64,000 bases of DNA from Armatimonadota bacterium (GTDB lineage: Bacteria > Armatimonadota > UBA5829 > DSUL01): assembly GCA_039811685.1 (NCBI GenBank), contig JBDHZC010000002.1, positions 576,001 to 640,000 on the forward strand, in the 5' to 3' direction. This document shows, one piece after another, positions 42,747 through 50,052 of this stretch. The notes under the pieces are model-generated. The model saw only the letters and a program-made list of their open reading frames with translations. It searched no databases and was not told where the DNA came from. Each line of letters begins with the position of its first letter. Position 1 is the first letter of the stretch. Made by a program: the position numbers and the translations under genes.

Positions 42747-43061
42747 ATGTCGACTAACAGCGTATTCAAAGCTCTGGCTGATCCAACGCGGAGGGAGATT
42801 CTCCGGCTGCTTGGGCATGGCGAGATGACGGCGGGTGAGCTGGCCGGGCGCTTCGACGTATCCTGGCCCTCCATGTCACATCACTTTGCCGTTCTGAAGA
42901 AGGCCTCTCTGATCGAGGGACGAAGAGACGGTCAGACAATTTACTATTCGCTGAATACGACAGTGCTGCAGGAGCTGCTGGCGTGGGCTTTTGATCTGGT
43001 TCCGAAGCTCAAAGCGGAGTCATCCGGACACGCCAGGGACGAATCCTCGGAGAAATCATAA
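42747..43061 (+). CDS. sdpR: ArsR-family repressor, SdpR-like
   Basis: FKALADPTRREIL..L..GEMTAGELA..F..S.PSMSHHF..LK...YSLNTTVLQE. Confidence 0.88.
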   Translation: MSTNSVFKALADPTRREILRLLGHGEMTAGELAGRFDVSWPSMSHHFAVLKKASLIEGRRDGQTIYYSLNTTVLQELLAWAFDLVPKLKAESSGHARDESSEKS

Positions 43062-43708
43062 ATGAACAACAGATGGTTCTGGTATTCGGTCGCGCTGAGC
43101 GCGGCTGTGTTCGCCGTAACGATTGTTCTGTATCCGCGCCTGCCGCAGATGATGCCCATCCACTGGAATATTCAGGGACAGGCGGACAACTACGCTCCAA
43201 AGTGGCCGGGGGCATTCCTGATTGCGTTTATGATGGCGGGATGGTGCGTGTGCTTCTGGCTGCTGCGCTGGCTCTCTCCGCGTGACTACGATACCGAGCG
43301 CTTTCGCGAGACGTTTTCCTACATCCTGTTCTGTGTTGCGGCGCTGTTGGCGTACATTCACGCGCTGACGCTGTACTTTGTCTTTGGCCGCATAGATTTT
43401 TCGCGGTGGATGATGGGGGGATTGTTCCTGTTCTTTGCGCTGCTTGGCAACGTCCTGGGGCGCGTGAAGCGCAACTTCTGGGTGGGCGTGCGCACTCCGT
43501 GGACTCTGGCGGATGAAGGGGTTGGAACGCGACGCACCGTCTCGCCGGACGCCTGTGGGTCGCCGGTGGCATAGCGGGGCTGATTCTCACAGTGCTCGGG
43601 GTTGGTTACGTGTGGCTGATAGCCTTCTTTCTGGTTGTTGTGATACTTCCCGCTCCTTATTCGCTTTATCTCTCAAAGAAACCGTCGGCGAATGGCGCGG
43701 CGCATTGA
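43062..43708 (+). pseudogene. sdpI: SdpI-family membrane protein with a 1-nt frameshift near 43518-43523
   Basis: MPIHWN..GQAD and NFWVGVRTPWTLADE in the first frame; the conserved WNATHRLAGRLW continues in another frame to TGA 43708. Confidence 0.75.
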
Positions 43709-43774
43709 GCGCACGGCAGGGAGCCGGTGTCTGGCGCCAGGAAACCGGGGCGGCAGATACAGCGGGAGGTGAGG

Positions 43775-46153
43775 CTACGGGCCGGAGATTCGCCAGTTCA
43801 TATCGGTGACCCGGTCAGGGCTCAGCGTACCACCGGAGAGAAAGTGCGTGCCGTCCATACTCCATGCGGCAAGGCTTCCGAGAGTCACATGCTGCCAGAT
43901 GAGGTCTGTTTTTCCATCACCTGAGATATCGTAGGCGGAGGCGATCGTCCAGTTGGGGTCTGGCACGAGATTCGGCGAAAGCTGGGTTCCCGACACAAAC
44001 TGTGTTCCGTTCATCAGCCAGGCTGCCAGGGCGCCCACCGTCTGGTGCCGCCAGATGAGGTCCGGCTTGCCGTCCTGGTTAATGTCCCGGACAGCGACAA
44101 CCCACCACCGGGGATCGCCAACCTGCGCCGGTGTCAACGGAGTTGAGCCTATGTGTGTTGCGCCATCCATCAGCCATACGAGAAGCGAGCCGTCAGAGGT
44201 GTTCTGCCACAGGATATCGTTGTGGCCGTCTGCGTTGAAGTCGCCGACACCGCCGATGCGCCAGCGCACGTCCGCCATCTGACCGACGGTGGCCGCTGAG
44301 GAGCGTGTGACGCCGTTCATAAACCAGATCGCGACTGAGCCCACCCCCTGGTGGCGCCAGAGCAGATCGGGCTTACCGTCACCGTTCATGTCCGGTGTGC
44401 CGACGACCCACCAGCGCGTGTCAGGAACCTGACTGGGGGTGAGAACACTGGAGCCGATGCGCTGACGGCCGTTCATGAACCAGACGCACAGACTGCCAAC
44501 TCCCCTGTGATGCCAGAGCAGATCCGTCTTTCCGTCTCCGTTGAAATCTCCGACAACCGGGCTGGAAGGGGCGGGCGGCGGTGTCTGAGCCTGAGCCGCG
44601 AAGTTGGCAGAAATTCGCAGGCTTCCGCTGCCTGAAGCGTAACCCCCGACGAGCAGCAGATAGCTCACTCCGCCAGCCACATTGTAGGACAGCCGACTCG
44701 TGGTAGTAACGCCGGAAACGTCATCGTCGTTACATGCCAGCGTCTGCCAGTTCCCACACACTCCACTGAGAAGACCGAGCACCGTATCGTAAGAACTGCC
44801 GGCCGTCGTAACAGTGAGCGTACCGTTAGACGGCGCCGTGTACCGGAACCATACGACTTTTCCAATCCCGACACCGCAAAGCGAGGCCGGGTCTGCGTCT
44901 GAGGTCGCAGTGCTGGTGGACTGGGTAATCACTGCTCCCGAGGTCAGGTTGGTCGCCCCGGCGCACTGGTCGTTGGCGGGAGCCGGCGGCGCGGGTGGCG
45001 GTGTCGCGGACTTTGGCATGTAAAGCGACTGAATGCCCTGGATATCGTCCGAATGCAGACCGCTTACCCGCTTGTAGTACGCGTACATCACCGCGTTGGT
45101 GTCACTGGAGTGGTTCAGACCCAAGCCATGCCCCAGCTCGTGGAGGGCGACAGAGAACAGGTCAATGTCTGAGCCGATGTTCCAGTTTTCATCTGCGTCA
45201 AAATGCAGATCCCCGGCAATGGATTCTGGATTGGGTGGCGATGGGAAGAAACAGTGCGCCAGAACTGTCCCCGGACCGTCGAACGCATATCCATCTCCAT
45301 GATCTCTGCTGTAGAAGCCAATTTCCAGACAGCGCGCCAATCCAGGCTGAGAGGTTTCCGTGAAGCTGAGTGCCGCATACCTGGCCCATTCCGCAAGAGC
45401 GCGCTCGATCTCGGCTTTCTGGTCGGCAGCGCTCAGGCGGCTCGTGAAGTTGCGAAAGCTGTACGTGAGAGAGGCGGAGCCCAGGCCCGGGCCGTCCCAC
45501 CCATCTCCGGTTGCGACGTAGTTTGGAACCGGACCCATTCGCGTAGAGGCGCCGGCACAGTAGTACATGCTTTGTCCGGCTGTCATACCTTCTGGCGCCT
45601 GACCCACCCATGCCACACAGTCCTCCCGCGCTATGGCTGAGGCGGACGCGACGTCCGCAAAGACGGCCAACGCGACATGATCCGGAAGCGACGGCGCCGG
45701 CACGATGCTGCCGCCGTGGGCAACAATGACAGCGCGCGCATTATCTGGTGTGGTATCCGGGAAGAACTCCACGACGGCCTGCTGAGCGGCGGAGGCGTCC
45801 AGCTTGTCCAGCGGACCAAAAGAACCTACCCAGCGCACTCCACGGACAGTCTGCGGGTTGAAACCGGCTGGAATCAGCGCTGCAACCGTGTAGTCCGGGA
45901 TGAAGTGTTCAATCCGGACTCCCTTCGCCTTCAAAGTTGCAGCAGCAGAGTCCATGGCTCCGGCTTCAAACTGAATGAGACCGTGCCAGTCACGGGCTCT
46001 GACCGACTGGGCGCCCACTGCGGAGGGCGAAGGCGTGAAGGAGCGTGACTTGAAGTGGAGGGTGTAGTCCGCAGAATCGCTGGCGCTGGCGCCACCAGCG
46101 ATAACGGCGCAGGCTATGAAGGCAAAAAGAGAAGTGGTAAGTCGGTCAATCAT
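43775..46153 (-). CDS. Secreted matrixin (M10) metalloprotease with C-terminal FG-GAP/VCBS repeats
   Basis: HGDGYAFDG, LAH.F, HFDADE, HELGHGLGLNH, AVM Met-turn; DFNGDGKTDLLW repeats. Confidence 0.9.
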   Translation of the reverse strand: MIDRLTTSLFAFIACAVIAGGASASDSADYTLHFKSRSFTPSPSAVGAQSVRARDWHGLIQFEAGAMDSAAATLKAKGVRIEHFIPDYTVAALIPAGFNPQTVRGVRWVGSFGPLDKLDASAAQQAVVEFFPDTTPDNARAVIVAHGGSIVPAPSLPDHVALAVFADVASASAIAREDCVAWVGQAPEGMTAGQSMYYCAGASTRMGPVPNYVATGDGWDGPGLGSASLTYSFRNFTSRLSAADQKAEIERALAEWARYAALSFTETSQPGLARCLEIGFYSRDHGDGYAFDGPGTVLAHCFFPSPPNPESIAGDLHFDADENWNIGSDIDLFSVALHELGHGLGLNHSSDTNAVMYAYYKRVSGLHSDDIQGIQSLYMPKSATPPPAPPAPANDQCAGATNLTSGAVITQSTSTATSDADPASLCGVGIGKVVWFRYTAPSNGTLTVTTAGSSYDTVLGLLSGVCGNWQTLACNDDDVSGVTTTSRLSYNVAGGVSYLLLVGGYASGSGSLRISANFAAQAQTPPPAPSSPVVGDFNGDGKTDLLWHHRGVGSLCVWFMNGRQRIGSSVLTPSQVPDTRWWVVGTPDMNGDGKPDLLWRHQGVGSVAIWFMNGVTRSSAATVGQMADVRWRIGGVGDFNADGHNDILWQNTSDGSLLVWLMDGATHIGSTPLTPAQVGDPRWWVVAVRDINQDGKPDLIWRHQTVGALAAWLMNGTQFVSGTQLSPNLVPDPNWTIASAYDISGDGKTDLIWQHVTLGSLAAWSMDGTHFLSGGTLSPDRVTDMNWRISGP

Positions 46154-46406
46154 GGTCGGTCATCAGGGGCGAACTGTTGCGGGACAAGGACAAGCGCGAG
46201 GCGTAGCGCACGGGCGCAGGCTGCGCATTTGAGAGGTCAGTGTGCGCTCGCCGGTACGAAAGGCGTTTTGCACCCATAGAGAATATTCCACAGTTTGAAC
46301 CGTTGGCTGTCGCCTGGTTTGACAAAGCATCTGAGATGGCCGCTTCGACCTCTGACAACTGTCAGCTTATCCGCAGGCAGCCGCACACGCAAGAGCAAAG
46401 ATTTGT

Positions 46407-46435
46407 TTGACCAAACCTGTGGTGTGAGGTACAAT
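46407..46435 (+). promoter_or_regulatory. Sigma70 promoter with no long CDS downstream
   Basis: TTGACC-N17-TACAAT. Confidence 0.65.
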
Positions 46436-46441
46436 AGCTGT

Positions 46442-46675
46442 ACCGACTACTCACAGGAGGTGATGGCCATATGGACTATTCTTTACGAGGTGATGAGCAG
46501 GGCTGACGTTTTAGCCTTGTAGAGCAAGCTGGACGGGCGCGTCCGGTAAGCCTCTAAGGGTTATGAACTCGGCCCTGGGCGGAAAACGCATCCGCCAGCA
46601 GGAGCAATCTTGCTTTCGTTCGAGTTCATCTCAAAAATGCGGCCGGAGCCTCCGGGCTTCGGCCGCAACTCGTTT
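46442..46675 (+). ncRNA. Candidate structured ncRNA, or sORF-containing RNA
   Basis: Promoter upstream, tandem GAGGTGATG motifs, several helices including a three-way junction, terminal 13-bp hairpin. Confidence 0.5.
46633..46675. terminator. Probable bidirectional terminator hairpin
   Basis: AAAAA-TGCGGCCGGAGCC-TCCG-GGCTTCGGCCGCA, between convergent units. Confidence 0.6.
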
Positions 46676-46738
46676 GAGCCAGAGCTACTCCGCGCTTTTG
46701 AACCGCCTGGCACAGTCAAGCGTGGCGTACTAGAAGAG

Positions 46739-47179
46739 CTACATCCCCAGATCTCTGCGAATGCTGTCTGCGCGCCGCACTGTGCCCAGTGAAGATCGCC
46801 GCCGATCCAGCGCCTGTCCAACCTTGATGCTCAGCAGATCGTACACGTCCACCCCGGGAATATTTTTCTCTACGTAATCGAAAGCGCCCAGCTTCATGCA
46901 CTCCACAGCATTCGCCACGTTGCCATAGGCGGTGAGTACGATGACTTCTGTGAATATGTCGCGCGCAACCGCAGCCTTGAGAACACTCACACCCGCCTGC
47001 TCACTGTTCATCACCATGTCCGTCACCACAACGTCGTAGCTGGGCTGAGTTTCGAGGATCATTTGCTCGGCAGCTTCCTCATTCTCTGCTTCGTCCACCT
47101 GATAGCCATCGCGCGAAAGCCGCCTCTTCACAGCCGCGCGCACGGATTCTTCGTCATCAACAATAAGTAGTTTTGTCAC
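46739..47179 (-). CDS. Stand-alone response regulator receiver
   Basis: LLIVDDE, VVTDMVM, LTAYG, GAFDYVEK. Confidence 0.9.
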   Translation of the reverse strand: MTKLLIVDDEESVRAAVKRRLSRDGYQVDEAENEEAAEQMILETQPSYDVVVTDMVMNSEQAGVSVLKAAVARDIFTEVIVLTAYGNVANAVECMKLGAFDYVEKNIPGVDVYDLLSIKVGQALDRRRSSLGTVRRADSIRRDLGM

Positions 47180-47242
47180 GTGTCAGCGTTTCCTCATTCA
47201 TCCGAAGACTCGGTTCATCAGCCGTTTGTCAAAGCTCTGTGG

Positions 47243-48970
47243 TCAGGCTGAGGCCACAGGCAACAGGATTTCAAAGCGAGCGCCCTTGCCTTCTTCGCCA
47301 GTTTCTGTGATCTCTCCCCTGTGCGCATCTATTATGCCCTTCACGATAGAGAGTCCAAGTCCCATGCCCTTGGAGCGCGTTGAGAAGAACGGGCGGAAAA
47401 TCTGTTTCTTTACATCCCTCGGAATGCCGGGCCCACGGTCTTCGAAGGTGACGCGTATCTGCTCCGGTTGGTGGGGCACAGGTTCTGTTCGCACACGCAC
47501 AAGCCCGCCTTCCTGCTGGAAATTGAAGCTGTTTTCGATAAGCTCGGAGAAGCAGCGGCGCAGCTTGGATGGGTCAGCTTCCACCGGTGGTAGATCCGGC
47601 GCGAACTCCAGCTCCAGCTTCACGGGCGTATTGCGCGGGAAGGCCTCAGTTACGGCTTCCTGTAACAGCTCGTTAATGGAGATGCGGCTGGTTTGCAGCT
47701 TGGTGGCGACGACAAATTCCCGGAACTCTGAGAGAATCTCTTCAAGGCGGAAGATCCCTCTCTCAAGGCTGGTGATGAGGGGCATAATCTTCTCTCGGTC
47801 GCAGCACTCTTCGCACACGTGGCGCAGTTCGTTTAGATCGCCTTTGATGGCAAAGACGCGGTTGCCGATCATGTGCGCGGAGCGCGCCGACATCTCACCC
47901 CATGCCGCCATTCTCTCGGCGGCGACTAGCCTCTTGACGAGGTTGACGCTGTCGATGACTGCTCCCAGAATGCTGGCGATCGCCACGACCAGCCCCTCAT
48001 CCTCATCCGTAAAATCGTTTGGCACCCAGGCGTAGGCGCTGCGCCTTCTCAGGATGCGCAGCACCCCCAGCAGATGGTCGTAGCCCTGAATGGGCGCTGC
48101 GATGAGGCCGCCCACTTCTTCCGGCGGCAGCTCTTCGTGCCGTCCCCGCCAGCGCGGGTCTTTGCGCGGGTCTCCCACGCGCGCCGGCTGTCCGTGCTCA
48201 GCCACCCAGCCGGTGATGCCCTCACCCAGGCTGTAGCGCGCCTCATGAACCTTCTCCCCCAGCGATCCTCTCGAAGCTTCGAGCACGAGGGCGGTGTTGT
48301 CTTTGTCCAGCAAAAAGATGGAGCAGTCTTCAAACTGGATTGCTCCGGCCACCAGGTCTATGACGCGGTTATAGAGGTCAACGGAGCGCGCAAAGCGGCC
48401 GATCTCGCGCCCCAGTGAGACCAGGGCCGCCTGTCTCTTGCGCTGCTCGTCCGCCACAATGCGCAGCGCGATGAGATTGGCTACGGCTACCAGAAAATCT
48501 TCGTGCTCTTCAGTGAAGGCATTCAGCGCAACGCTCTCGACGTTGATAACTCCCTGCGTCCTTCCGTCCGCGTCAAGGATGGGCACAGCGAGTTCGCTCC
48601 TGGCATCCGCGAAGTGGCGCACATAGTACCTGTCACTTGACACATCGCCGGTGCGGTAGGGAGCGCCAGTAGCCGCGACGTGGCTGGTGATACCACGCCC
48701 TGTCTCCTGCGACATCTTCAACCGCAGCCGCGCGCTCATCTCACTCCAGCCCGCCCCCGCCGTGTAGCGCACAGCGAGCTCACCGTGCTCATAGTCCACC
48801 ATAGCGATGAACGCGCGGTGAGCATTGAGGGCGTGCATGGACTCTGTGAGGATGGCGTCAATGATGTGATCCAACTGGGCATCGTTGGAGACCAGCAGAC
48901 GAGAGATCCGTCCAAACACCGAGGCGTGAAGATAGGCGCTTCTTGTAGCCTTGTTCCCAGCGTTACTCAT
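47243..48970 (-). CDS. Cytoplasmic GAF-GAF histidine kinase
   Basis: Two GAF domains (GITSHVA..G, GEGITGWVA), AHMIGNR H-box, DRGPGI, FRPFFST, GMGLGL. Confidence 0.9.
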   Translation of the reverse strand: MSNAGNKATRSAYLHASVFGRISRLLVSNDAQLDHIIDAILTESMHALNAHRAFIAMVDYEHGELAVRYTAGAGWSEMSARLRLKMSQETGRGITSHVAATGAPYRTGDVSSDRYYVRHFADARSELAVPILDADGRTQGVINVESVALNAFTEEHEDFLVAVANLIALRIVADEQRKRQAALVSLGREIGRFARSVDLYNRVIDLVAGAIQFEDCSIFLLDKDNTALVLEASRGSLGEKVHEARYSLGEGITGWVAEHGQPARVGDPRKDPRWRGRHEELPPEEVGGLIAAPIQGYDHLLGVLRILRRRSAYAWVPNDFTDEDEGLVVAIASILGAVIDSVNLVKRLVAAERMAAWGEMSARSAHMIGNRVFAIKGDLNELRHVCEECCDREKIMPLITSLERGIFRLEEILSEFREFVVATKLQTSRISINELLQEAVTEAFPRNTPVKLELEFAPDLPPVEADPSKLRRCFSELIENSFNFQQEGGLVRVRTEPVPHQPEQIRVTFEDRGPGIPRDVKKQIFRPFFSTRSKGMGLGLSIVKGIIDAHRGEITETGEEGKGARFEILLPVASA

Positions 48971-49143
48971 GTCGCATACTATTTAGCCGGAAACGGCGCA
49001 GTATGCCTCCGCAAGACAGTACAAACCGCGCCAGATGAGCTTGTGTGGCACTGGCGCAGGAGTCGTTGCTCAGCGCGAAGAAACAGCTTCCAGGCTTGCG
49101 GGTATTGTTCCGCCGCGCCGCTTTTCTTCGTCTCACACTCTCT

Positions 49144-50052
49144 ATGGCCACAGTCGCGCCCATATTCTCCACGTTTTTACTGTTGCTGGTCGGTTTCGCC
49201 CTGCGCAAAGGACGCATCCTGAAGCAGGGTGAGACGGACACGCTCAACGCCGTGATTATCTTCGCGACCGTGCCGGCCCTGGCTTTCACCATCATGTACG
49301 GTCAGAAGCTGAGCTGGAGCGCGGCGGCAGTTGTGGTCGGCGGGAACCTGGCCAATCTGGTCAGCCTTGCAGTTGCATGGAGTATCGCGCGCGCATTGAA
49401 GCTCAGCCGGCCGCGAACCGGGGCGTTTATGATAGCCGCAACCTTCGGCAACACGACTTTTATGGGAATTCCGATTATCGCGGCGGCCTTTCACGGAAGC
49501 AAGCATGCGCTCTTGTACGGGATTGTGTATGGCGAGCTGGCGATGTCGCTACCGGTATATACGCTGGGATTGTGGGTGGCTTCGCACTTTGGCGGCGCGC
49601 AGGCGCATATGCGGGAGCTTCTGTCCATCAAGCGGCTGCCAGCAATACCGGCGCTTTTTGCTGGACTCGTGTTGTCCGGAGTGACAGTGCCTGGGGCGTT
49701 GATGGACGTCATCAAGAGCCTTGGCGCCTGCACGCTGCCGCTTTCGATGATCTCGGTGGGCGTTATGCTGAGCGGCCGGAGCTTTCGCGGAAACGGAGCG
49801 CTCATCGTGTGTACGGGCATTTTGAAGTTGTTTTGCATGCCGCTGATTGTGTATGCCATACTGACTCTGTTCGGAGTTGGGGGGCTCACGAGGCAGGTGG
49901 CGACTTTGCAGGCGGCGATGCCGAACTCAATCATCTCCAATATTATGACCGTCCAGGGCGGCTCGGATGGCAATCTGGTTTCCAGCGCTACGCTGGCCAC
50001 GACCATCGCCAGCGTAGCGACGCTGCCGCTTGTGCTGATGGCGCTTCGCTGA
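49144..50052 (+). CDS. AEC-family transporter
   Basis: PALAF, FGNTTFMGIPII, QAAMP; about 10 TM segments. Confidence 0.88.
   Translation: MATVAPIFSTFLLLLVGFALRKGRILKQGETDTLNAVIIFATVPALAFTIMYGQKLSWSAAAVVVGGNLANLVSLAVAWSIARALKLSRPRTGAFMIAATFGNTTFMGIPIIAAAFHGSKHALLYGIVYGELAMSLPVYTLGLWVASHFGGAQAHMRELLSIKRLPAIPALFAGLVLSGVTVPGALMDVIKSLGACTLPLSMISVGVMLSGRSFRGNGALIVCTGILKLFCMPLIVYAILTLFGVGGLTRQVATLQAAMPNSIISNIMTVQGGSDGNLVSSATLATTIASVATLPLVLMALR

Follow-up and report, generated by a model that had tools for sequence, protein, structure and literature searches.

A structured small RNA with an embedded mini-open reading frame, conserved in Armatimonadota and possibly refolded by its own translation

In the 64,000-nucleotide (nt) stretch of DNA analysed here, hereafter the window (positions 576,001 to 640,000 of contig JBDHZC010000002.1, assembly GCA_039811685.1, from an Armatimonadota bacterium), a 585-nt gap between two minus-strand open reading frames (ORFs), at 46154-46738, contains a unit at 46407-46670 which raises a simple question: is it a non-coding RNA, the messenger of a very short peptide, the leader of a neighbouring gene, or an RNA of another kind? 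The original prediction, made from the letters of the window, had described a free-standing structured RNA with tandem motifs complementary to the tail of the 16S ribosomal RNA (rRNA), and had proposed either a ribosome-binding or sponge RNA or a micropeptide messenger. As judged from sequence comparison, the unit is one member of an undescribed family of small RNAs (sRNAs), with predicted transcripts of about 150-235 nt, which is widespread in Armatimonadota and usually single-copy. The reading favoured here, with about even confidence, is that of a structured sRNA with a translated embedded mini-ORF, in which translation, and not the peptide, would remodel the RNA between a closed and an open fold. 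It is built on the conservation of the family, the covariation of its helices, the integrity of the ORF, the independence of the genomic context and two alternative folds obtained in silico.

How widely is the unit distributed? It is single-copy in its own genome, and BLAST retrieved homologues from related genomes (G002, G004 and G030; G, L, f and g designate genomes, loci, families and genera) together with two others (G034, G035) among the 53 genomes of the class. A covariance model made from nine class-level sequences (R1) matched 29 of the 151 sampled genomes of the phylum, once each, and a model of the 5' module made from 37 sequences (R2) matched 78 of the 151 genomes, corresponding to 70 of the 135 high-quality genomes and to 58 of the 99 genera. 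The R2 matches are mostly one per genome, and several fall in genomes assembled as a single contig (e.g., G018, G072, G155); in four genomes (G001, G078, G160, G171) there are two, the second of which is weak (E 0.001-0.007) and may be a paralogue or a chance match, and the genomes searched in families f8 (0/13), f19 (0/6), f20 (0/5), f12, f22 and f25 (0/4 each) gave no R2 match. The search beyond the phylum consisted of two exact-pattern scans: a pattern fixing GGAGGTG, CGAGGT, GGGCT and TTTTAGCC, with start and stop codons left open, found 14 loci in metagenome contigs, and the public contigs matched by exact pattern belong to Armatimonadota. Viral contigs gave 0 matches. A few BLAST matches were discarded, namely 26 nt of the terminal hairpin alone in G024 (L005), a match in apparent coding sequence without a promoter (L007), a match in coding-like sequence (L015), and short chance or irrelevant matches in G009 (contig C35), G028 and G036, the true copy of G009 residing on another contig, where R1 found it. 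That a single-copy RNA is retained in 58 or more of the 99 genera sampled makes an important cellular role probable.

The comparison with Rfam suggested by the original prediction matched no described family. With Rfam 15, the whole 64-kb window gave 0 matches at gathering score, a permissive scan of 46100-46800 remained at chance level (best match MIR7510, 19.4 vs 93 bits, E 0.55), and the sole match on 16 homologous loci was an unrelated tRNA. The literature searched on noncoding or small RNAs of Armatimonadetes/Armatimonadota, and on the conjunction of anti-Shine-Dalgarno, sRNA and small ORF, held nothing relevant, and no described small RNA for this phylum was found in it. Armatimonadota are widespread in soils, sludge and freshwater, and the RNA represents a new family for Rfam and for genome annotation.

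Is the embedded frame read by ribosomes? The unit carries on its plus strand an extended Shine-Dalgarno (SD) sequence, AGGAGGTGAT (46455-46464), in which the original prediction had recognized a complement of the canonical 16S tail; the genome's own 16S rRNA ends in ...GGAUCACCUCCUUUCU, of which this sequence is indeed an exact 10-nt complement. The 3.42-Mb genome holds 10 occurrences of the 10-mer and 3 of its reversed control. Almost every homologue retains GGAGGTG(A/G)T, those retrieved by covariance model among them, the SD of loci from the exact-pattern scans being required by the search pattern itself. An ATG then opens, on the same strand, the 11-codon mini-ORF MDYSLRGDEQG (46471-46506, with TGA at 46504-46506), which is present as predicted and whose 11-codon frame is conserved across the phylum. 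Among 57 distinct homologous ORFs, selected by a start-picking rule that sought frames of 9-15 codons, the start codon is ATG in 55 and TTG in 2, the length is 11 codons in 45, 10 in 6, 12 in 1, 13 in 4 and 14 in 1, and the frame ends with TAG (33), TGA (15) or TAA (9), TGG never occupying the stop place. In 38 of the 42 distinct rows of the model alignment the stop falls in one column, and in 41 once three f1 rows are given their proper ATG. Near relatives swap one stop codon for another (TAG in L024 vs TAA in L030; TGA, TAA and TAG within family f27), the 10-, 12- and 13-codon variants remain in frame to the homologous stop with indels occurring in threes, and the spacer from GGAGG to the start changes by single bases over 7-13 nt, with a mode of 10 nt (19/57). 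All 14 metagenome loci, found by a pattern in which start and stop were unspecified, nevertheless have both. This behaviour of start, stop, length and spacer suggests a frame that is read. Two side observations concern the frame: in L098, L099 and L102 (family f29) a TTG start stands at the homologous place, with the SD GGAGGUA and a frame still of 11 codons, and members of genus g46 in family f18 (L047, L049, L053-L055, L058, L059) display two tandem UUUUAGC...AUGAAC modules together with a 10-codon ORF.

What structure is this frame part of? The plus strand from 46441 to 46680 folds at -116.3 kcal/mol vs -82.1 +/- 4.8 for shuffled sequences (z -7.07; 0/200 as good), and the minus strand reaches z -1.90, a strand asymmetry which argues for an RNA read from the plus strand. 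Complementarity was verified for all helices previously outlined (46497-506/46511-520, 46528-535/46540-547, ATGAACTCG/CGAGTTCAT, GGCGGA/TCCGCC and the GCAA hairpin). In the minimum-energy folds, the 3' part of the ORF pairs with downstream strands, all on the plus strand: an internal SD-like GAGGTGA (46487-46493) and the following TGAGC (46494-46498) form the 5' strands of helix P1, the 3' strands of which are GTTCG (46618-46622) and the anti-SD-like TCATCTC (46626-46632), and codons 10-11 plus the stop codon, CAGGGCTGA (46498-46506), form the 5' strand of helix P3 with TCGGCCCTG (46569-46577), which corresponds at the RNA level in the full-length fold to CAGGGCUGA paired with UCGGCCCUG. Helix P4 comprises an internal loop, one side of which is the conserved motif TTTTAGCC (46509-46516, pairing with 46556-46568; its TTTTA and C do not vary among 37 sequences) and the other side GGGTTATGAAC (46558-46568, family consensus GGTYATGAAC), which occurs in most homologues. 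The variable hairpin P5, GCTGGACG-GGCG-CGTCCGGT (46528-46547), appears in all folds of the window, and two further hairpins follow, GGCGGA...TCCGCC (46578-46596) and AGCAGGA-GCAA-TCTTGCT with its GNRA tetraloop (46597-46614). The real SD is unpaired in the predicted folds.

The covariation analysis that had likewise been suggested detected covariation in the homologues, including in P1 and P3. In a MAFFT alignment of nine sequences, fitted to no model, RNAalifold predicts 39 pairs, 7 of them with compensatory change, distributed among P0 (UGAC(U)/(A)GUCA, around the AUG), P1 (internal GAGGU with ACCUC or GCUUC), P2 (codons 9-10 with a downstream strand), P3 (GGGC/GCCC), P4 (the internal loop of invariant UUUUAGCC and GGUYAUGAA), the variable hairpin P5 and the GNRA hairpin P6. 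The P3 pair reads CAGGGC/GCCCUG in the window, GAGGGC/GCCCUC in G002, GCGGGC/GCCUGC in G035 and GAGGGCU/AGCCCUC in G034. Compensatory changes affect 7/7 pairs of the hairpin homologous to P5 in the model-fitted alignment, and 6/6 pairs of a GNRA (GUGA) hairpin located at a comparable place in the class-level subfamily. In the model-fitted alignment (43 matches, 42 distinct rows), 92.8% of the cells pair vs 79.8% in shuffles and 33-54% in slid controls, 0/500 shuffles reaching the observed values, and 29 of the 39 pairs show both-sided changes, a count weakened by the misalignment of the 3' half in diverged rows, among them the window, L002 and L003. Because of this misalignment, an alignment-free swap test was run, in which the 3' half of the small ORF from 12 representatives was paired with its own downstream segment or with permuted ones: the own pairs reach -22.7 kcal/mol vs -18.0 +/- 0.83 for permuted pairs, and 0/20000 permutations were as low. 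The hairpin around the stop codon (GGCU/AGCC, 46497-506/46511-520) was rejected as a conserved helix, since it displays no covariation, 176-227 of 500 shuffles reaching its observed values (88.1% paired); RNAalifold nonetheless picks it on the alignment of the 5' part only.

With this structure in hand, a purely non-coding RNA becomes the first alternative to consider, in which the SD-like tract, the AUG and the stop would be structural or binding motifs of a decoy or sponge for 30S/70S ribosomes, or of a protein binder acting through the UUUUAGCC / GGUYAUGAAC loop, no peptide being made. We regard it as unlikely, while granting that pairing explains most of the nucleotide conservation in the ORF (AGUCA in P0, GAGGU in P1, codons 9-11 in P2/P3), that third codon positions are nearly invariant across families, that the two invariant loop motifs play no part in coding, and that the SD complement is exact over its 10 nt. 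Such an RNA would, however, have no need to keep in an unpaired loop an ATG whose sole alternative is another start codon, to use all three stops and never TGG at the stop place, and to admit indels in threes within the frame next to a spacer that varies by single bases. With regard to the loop itself, the UUUUAGCC / GGUYAUGAAC arrangement could be K-turn-like, as we assume from its GGU/GCC stem, 3-nt bulge and G.A then A.U pairs, which would suggest a protein site; the RNA may also possess a ligand-binding core. In family f10, GUGAUGAAC stands in place of the internal-loop motif. The homologues do not conserve the likeness to box C/D that the window displays (GUGAUGA ... CUGA), and it was discarded.

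Does the peptide matter, then? A micropeptide messenger, with a functional 11-residue peptide and a structure reduced to a stabilising 3' untranslated region (UTR) or a translational control element, would account for the conservation of a strong SD, of start, stop and length, and for the synonymous variety between lineages (TTA/TTG/CTA for Leu, TCT/AGT for Ser, CGA/AGA/CGG for Arg). The peptides share the consensus M-x-x-S-Q/L-R-G-D-x-x-G, but the conserved residues S4, Q/L5, R6, G7 and G11 coincide with paired nucleotides, whereas codons 2-3, located in the loop, vary without constraint (D, E, I, N, V, K, A, L, G, H, S and Y are among the residues seen). Moreover, changes that preserve pairing alter residues: in L025, AGU becomes UGU (Ser to Cys) with a compensating U to A and the pairing kept; in L040, L044 and L048, CGAGGU becomes CGGAGG (RG to RR, Gly to Arg) with GGAGG kept; in family f10, the last codon GGC turns into GUC, GCC or AGC (final Gly to Val, Ala or Ser). 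Peptide residues thus seem to be kept only where RNA pairing requires them, and the covariation of the 3' core goes far beyond the needs of a UTR. The micropeptide idea of the original prediction is accordingly disfavoured as the main function, and only a slim chance is left to it. Programmed frameshifting at the end of the ORF finds no foothold either, no X XXY YYZ slippery site (searched by eye) and no long alternative frame being present. The claim that the unit contains no long ORF needs qualification: mechanical ORFs of 56-86 amino acids (aa) overlap it, but none is conserved in homologues. In this respect, the ATG at 46563 was rejected as the start of a second ORF, since the frames it opens have no conserved length, from 2 to about 300 aa across homologues (56 aa here; 2-9 aa in G030, G034 and G035); the ATG within GGTYATGAAC is thus an RNA motif and not a start codon.

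What is the role of the second SD-like motif? The motif GAGGTGATG (46487-46495) exists and is conserved across the phylum, though it comes 32 nt after the first motif and not 30 as announced. The view of a tandem, free 16S-binding motif had to be abandoned: the tract instead pairs, as the 5' strand of a helix, with an anti-SD-like strand further downstream, and this helix is held by one-sided and compensatory changes. P1 associates GAGGUGA with UCAUCUC in the window and GAGGUG with CACCUC in G001, a member of the window's own family; in other members the anti-SD-like strand is CACCUC, UCACCUU or UCACC, and L105 displays a compensatory change from GGUGA/UCACC to GGUGG/CCACC. GAGGU/ACCUC are homologous pairs in both the MAFFT and the model-fitted alignments. 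In distant families the loop motifs are replaced, yet the 11-codon frame is kept in nearly all of them, and the type-D members (e.g., L103, L105, L106, L107, L110) keep P1 in the form of GGUGAYUG paired with CAR(U)UCACC just before the terminator. A group of loci without UUUUAGCC/AUGAAC (L103, L105-L107, L109, L110, L115-L117) shares CCUCCAAUCC(A)AAC, which includes the anti-SD core CCUCC, upstream of the UCACC strand, so that two anti-SD-like tracts face two SD-like tracts. In 47 of the 57 ORFs, as read off the ORF table by hand, the internal GAGG ends 13 nt ahead of the stop, i.e., 10 nt before the last sense codon, which equals the modal spacing between the real GGAGG and the AUG. Since both spacings are of 10 nt, the internal SD-like tract would, once the stop codon enters the A site, be as far from the P site of the ribosome as the SD is in an initiation complex.

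Can the RNA adopt another fold? The three-way junction of the original prediction has complementary strands, and it is the best fold when the 5' part is left out, but it is absent from the full-length minimum-energy fold. In the latter, GAGGUGA-UGAGC (46487-46498) pairs with GUUCG...UCAUCUC (46618-46632) and the junction does not form; once the 5' part is omitted, as if masked by a ribosome, the best fold (-80.9 kcal/mol, z -5.92) is the junction closed by AUGAACUCG/CGAGUUCAU, i.e., helix P7, between ATGAACTCG (46563-46571, plus strand) and CGAGTTCAT (46621-46629). The latter strand overlaps the P1 3' strands, and since both P1 and P7 use 46621-46629 the two are mutually exclusive in full. The terminal hairpin is involved in neither of the alternative folds (P1/P3 vs P7). 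In other subfamilies, comparable helices after AUGAAC are GAACUG/CAGUUC, GAACGGCG/CGCCGUUC, GAACGGGAC/GUCCUGUUC and GAACAGG/CCUGUUC, each of which abuts the anti-SD-like strand. The P7 helix could instead form a pseudoknot with P3.

Under the favoured reading of an sRNA remodelled by translation of its mini-ORF, each member would consist, in this order, of a sigma-70-type promoter, a near-perfect extended SD, the mini-ORF, a multi-helix core whose 5' strands would be supplied by codons 6-11 and the stop codon, and a terminator hairpin. Initiation would take place at the strong SD and the AUG, left accessible by the fold; the reading of codons 6-11 would then require the unzipping of P1, P2 and P3, and the 3' strands thus released could rearrange into the P7 junction. 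With the ribosome at the stop, the internal GAGGUG would stand 10 nt before the P-site codon, where the anti-SD of the ribosome could replace the intramolecular mimic. The outcome would be a two-state switch actuated by the act of translation and indifferent to the peptide. We infer the existence of the transcript, the translation of the ORF and the operation of the switch from these sequence features.

Several points weigh against this reading. The copy in the window scores just 18.7 bits with R1, and in the swap test its own pair is no better than foreign ones (-16.6 vs -18.0 kcal/mol), because the 55-nt segment ends at 46623 and lacks the P1 3' strand UCAUCUC at 46626-46632. A swap test of P7 over all sequences, in which some motif positions were mis-picked (in L030 and L004), gave no signal (-7.87 vs -8.18, with 13053/20000 permutations as low); it gave a modest one (-11.08 vs -10.11 +/- 0.48, 499/20000 as low) for the sequences outside the class-level subfamily, which lends weak support. 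The ORF counts are not independent trials, because the sequences are related and the start-picking rule preset frames of 9-15 codons, and the switching from stop to stop could partly reflect a purine-purine constraint. Finally, four RNA runs (X18, X19, X20, X22) compared with 43000-50000 of the window yielded few short, low-depth contigs on coding parts and left 46276-46743 uncovered, which is uninformative and not negative. The overlap of two further contigs with the window, from X20 and X22 (1075 and 840 nt), is limited to 18-22 nt at 45692-45709 and 46784-46805; their 'joint' skips the unit, with 20 other letters in between, and they probably derive from other organisms and not from a deletion form of the unit.

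A bolder version of the idea, which we hold to be distinctly unlikely, is that of a phylum-wide housekeeping RNA which traps a ribosome at termination and in this way reports on the capacity for translation or buffers it: the masked SD-like tract would be handed to the anti-SD of the ribosome at the stop, the ribosome would be held, and the 3' elements (GGUYAUGAAC and the anti-SD-like strand) would flip to an active conformation. If true, the RNA would be a riboregulator actuated by the ribosome, or a device for parking ribosomes, of a kind not yet described. The design is in any case unusual, in that the structural core incorporates a mini-ORF of fixed length and an SD-like tract, at an initiation-like spacing from the stop, is paired with an anti-SD mimic, and it offers a tractable test case for the relationship between SD-like sequences within ORFs and terminating ribosomes. 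If the ORF is translated, the RNA would be a natural example of a conformation set by the ribosome in an RNA that leads no gene, and the idea of the leader-peptide switch would extend to trans-acting or autonomous RNAs.

Could the unit, however, be a leader after all? In L002, L003, L031, L033 and L037 (class families f1, f3 and f4) the RNA, greA and lysS follow one another on one strand, in L056 (a fourth family, of another class) greA lies just upstream of the RNA, and the RNA precedes mraZ-rsmH in L046 and L052 and serS in L043. A cis leader or attenuator, ancestrally of greA-lysS, in which translation of the small ORF would set terminator read-through and of which the window copy would have lost its target, would fit these arrangements, and a precedent exists in Escherichia coli, where the greA leader gives terminated short transcripts of 40-60 nt, GraL (PMC2836576). 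The Armatimonadota RNA resembles GraL as a predicted short terminated transcript upstream of greA in the five loci listed, but differs from it by a length of 150-235 nt, by the presence of an ORF (the abstract of PMC2836576 mentions none for GraL) and by the lack of linkage to greA in most loci. The contexts indeed differ widely: neighbouring genes change between lineages without any consistent downstream gene, and at least 10 loci are followed by a convergent gene, among them the window, L013 (NUDIX), L014 and L017 (YkuD), L020 and L036 (panB), L047 and L053 (ferrochelatase), L048 and L050. The gaps between the RNA and greA reach roughly 270-380 nt, no alternative pairing overlapping the terminator stem was seen, and no Rfam family, GraL included if it is in Rfam, was matched at gathering score. 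A leader origin is thus given little credence. The recurrent synteny may simply mean that gene order is conserved around housekeeping genes; an origin in an ancestral cis link with greA is the less likely alternative. The RNA neighbours are often housekeeping or translation-related genes, without a consistent partner, and an ATPase of the ABC-F type is encoded upstream of the RNA in L048.

Because contexts vary and a convergent gene often follows, the RNA appears to be a free-standing unit and not a leader, as had been proposed; it is structured and conserved, and it has a promoter of its own. The predicted sigma-70-type promoter TTGACC-N17-TACAAT was found at 46407-46435 on the plus strand, where 10 of 12 consensus positions match. 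It is the sole promoter-like site in 45800-47400, where shuffles give 0.5 +/- 0.6 sites, and transcription would start at about 46442. A relaxed rule recognizes a promoter-like pair at this upstream place in 45 of 58 distinct homologues, and a strict rule does so in 22 of them.

How does this RNA compare with known systems? In leader-peptide switches, i.e., ribosome-mediated attenuation of the trpL type and translational attenuation of the ermC or cat type, mutually exclusive helices depend on the position of the ribosome. The Armatimonadota RNA shares with them a short ORF, a strong SD, an ORF whose 3' part pairs downstream and mutually exclusive helices, but no regulated gene lies downstream of it, its ORF contains no stretch of regulatory codons, and neither an overlap of terminator and antiterminator nor a sequestered second start was found. 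An attenuator is directly followed by a gene on the same strand; the next ORF in the window lies on the minus strand, and only some loci (with greA, mraZ or serS) have such a gene on the same strand. In SD-sequestering cis elements, such as translational riboswitches and RNA thermometers, the SD is paired with an anti-SD-like tract before the start codon. Here too an SD-like purine tract is paired with an anti-SD-like pyrimidine tract in one RNA, but this tract lies inside the ORF, 10 nt before the last sense codon, and it is not the real SD. A riboswitch was rejected, since no consistent downstream gene and no Rfam riboswitch match exist.

The dual-function sRNAs form another group to be considered. 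Their ORFs usually measure about 26-43 aa, the base-pairing region mostly lies apart from the ORF, and the peptide is functional. The RNA described here is similar in being a predicted free-standing small transcript with its own promoter and terminator, which would combine a short frame with a function at the RNA level; it differs in that its frame has 10-14 codons, lies inside the structured core and conserves no residues beyond pairing, and it shows no similarity in sequence or in Rfam. Examples of the group are SgrS/SgrT, SR1/SR1P, RNAIII/hld and VcdRP. Dual-function sRNAs are reviewed in PMC12612679 and PMC12310071, and VcdP is a protein of 29 aa (PMC8672173). The transfer-messenger RNA (tmRNA, RF00023) is likewise a single-copy structured RNA of the housekeeping type, with a frame of roughly 10 codons and a stop in a helix region, but it possesses a tRNA-like domain and no SD/AUG, both of which the mini-ORF has. 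The locus has no RF00023 match, the canonical tmRNA of the genome being elsewhere (G000:C2:702184-702570, 184.7 bits), and no match to the 6S model with its long helix and central bubble, the 6S RNA of the genome residing on contig C4 (52.3 bits), in keeping with the unlikeness to tmRNA and 6S previously noted. Type I toxin messengers, which encode a short, hydrophobic, membrane-active peptide and have an antisense RNA as partner, were discarded, the peptides here being hydrophilic (MDYSLRGDEQG, MIDSQRGDRAG) and the minus strand having no significant fold.

The unit is flanked on the left by the ORF of a matrixin + FG-GAP protein (43775-46153, minus strand) and on the right by a response-regulator receiver ORF (46739-47179, minus strand), convergent to the unit and adjacent to a GAF histidine kinase (47243-48970). 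A G+C-rich terminal hairpin of 13 bp (46638-46667) forms a stem in the minimum-energy folds; its complementarity is as predicted. On the minus strand, on which the convergent response-regulator ORF lies upstream of the hairpin, the stem is followed by a T-run (ATTTTT); the plus strand offers just TTT, 6 nt beyond the stem. The hairpin is probably a bidirectional terminator, shared with the convergent response-regulator/GAF-kinase operon (46739-48970, minus strand).

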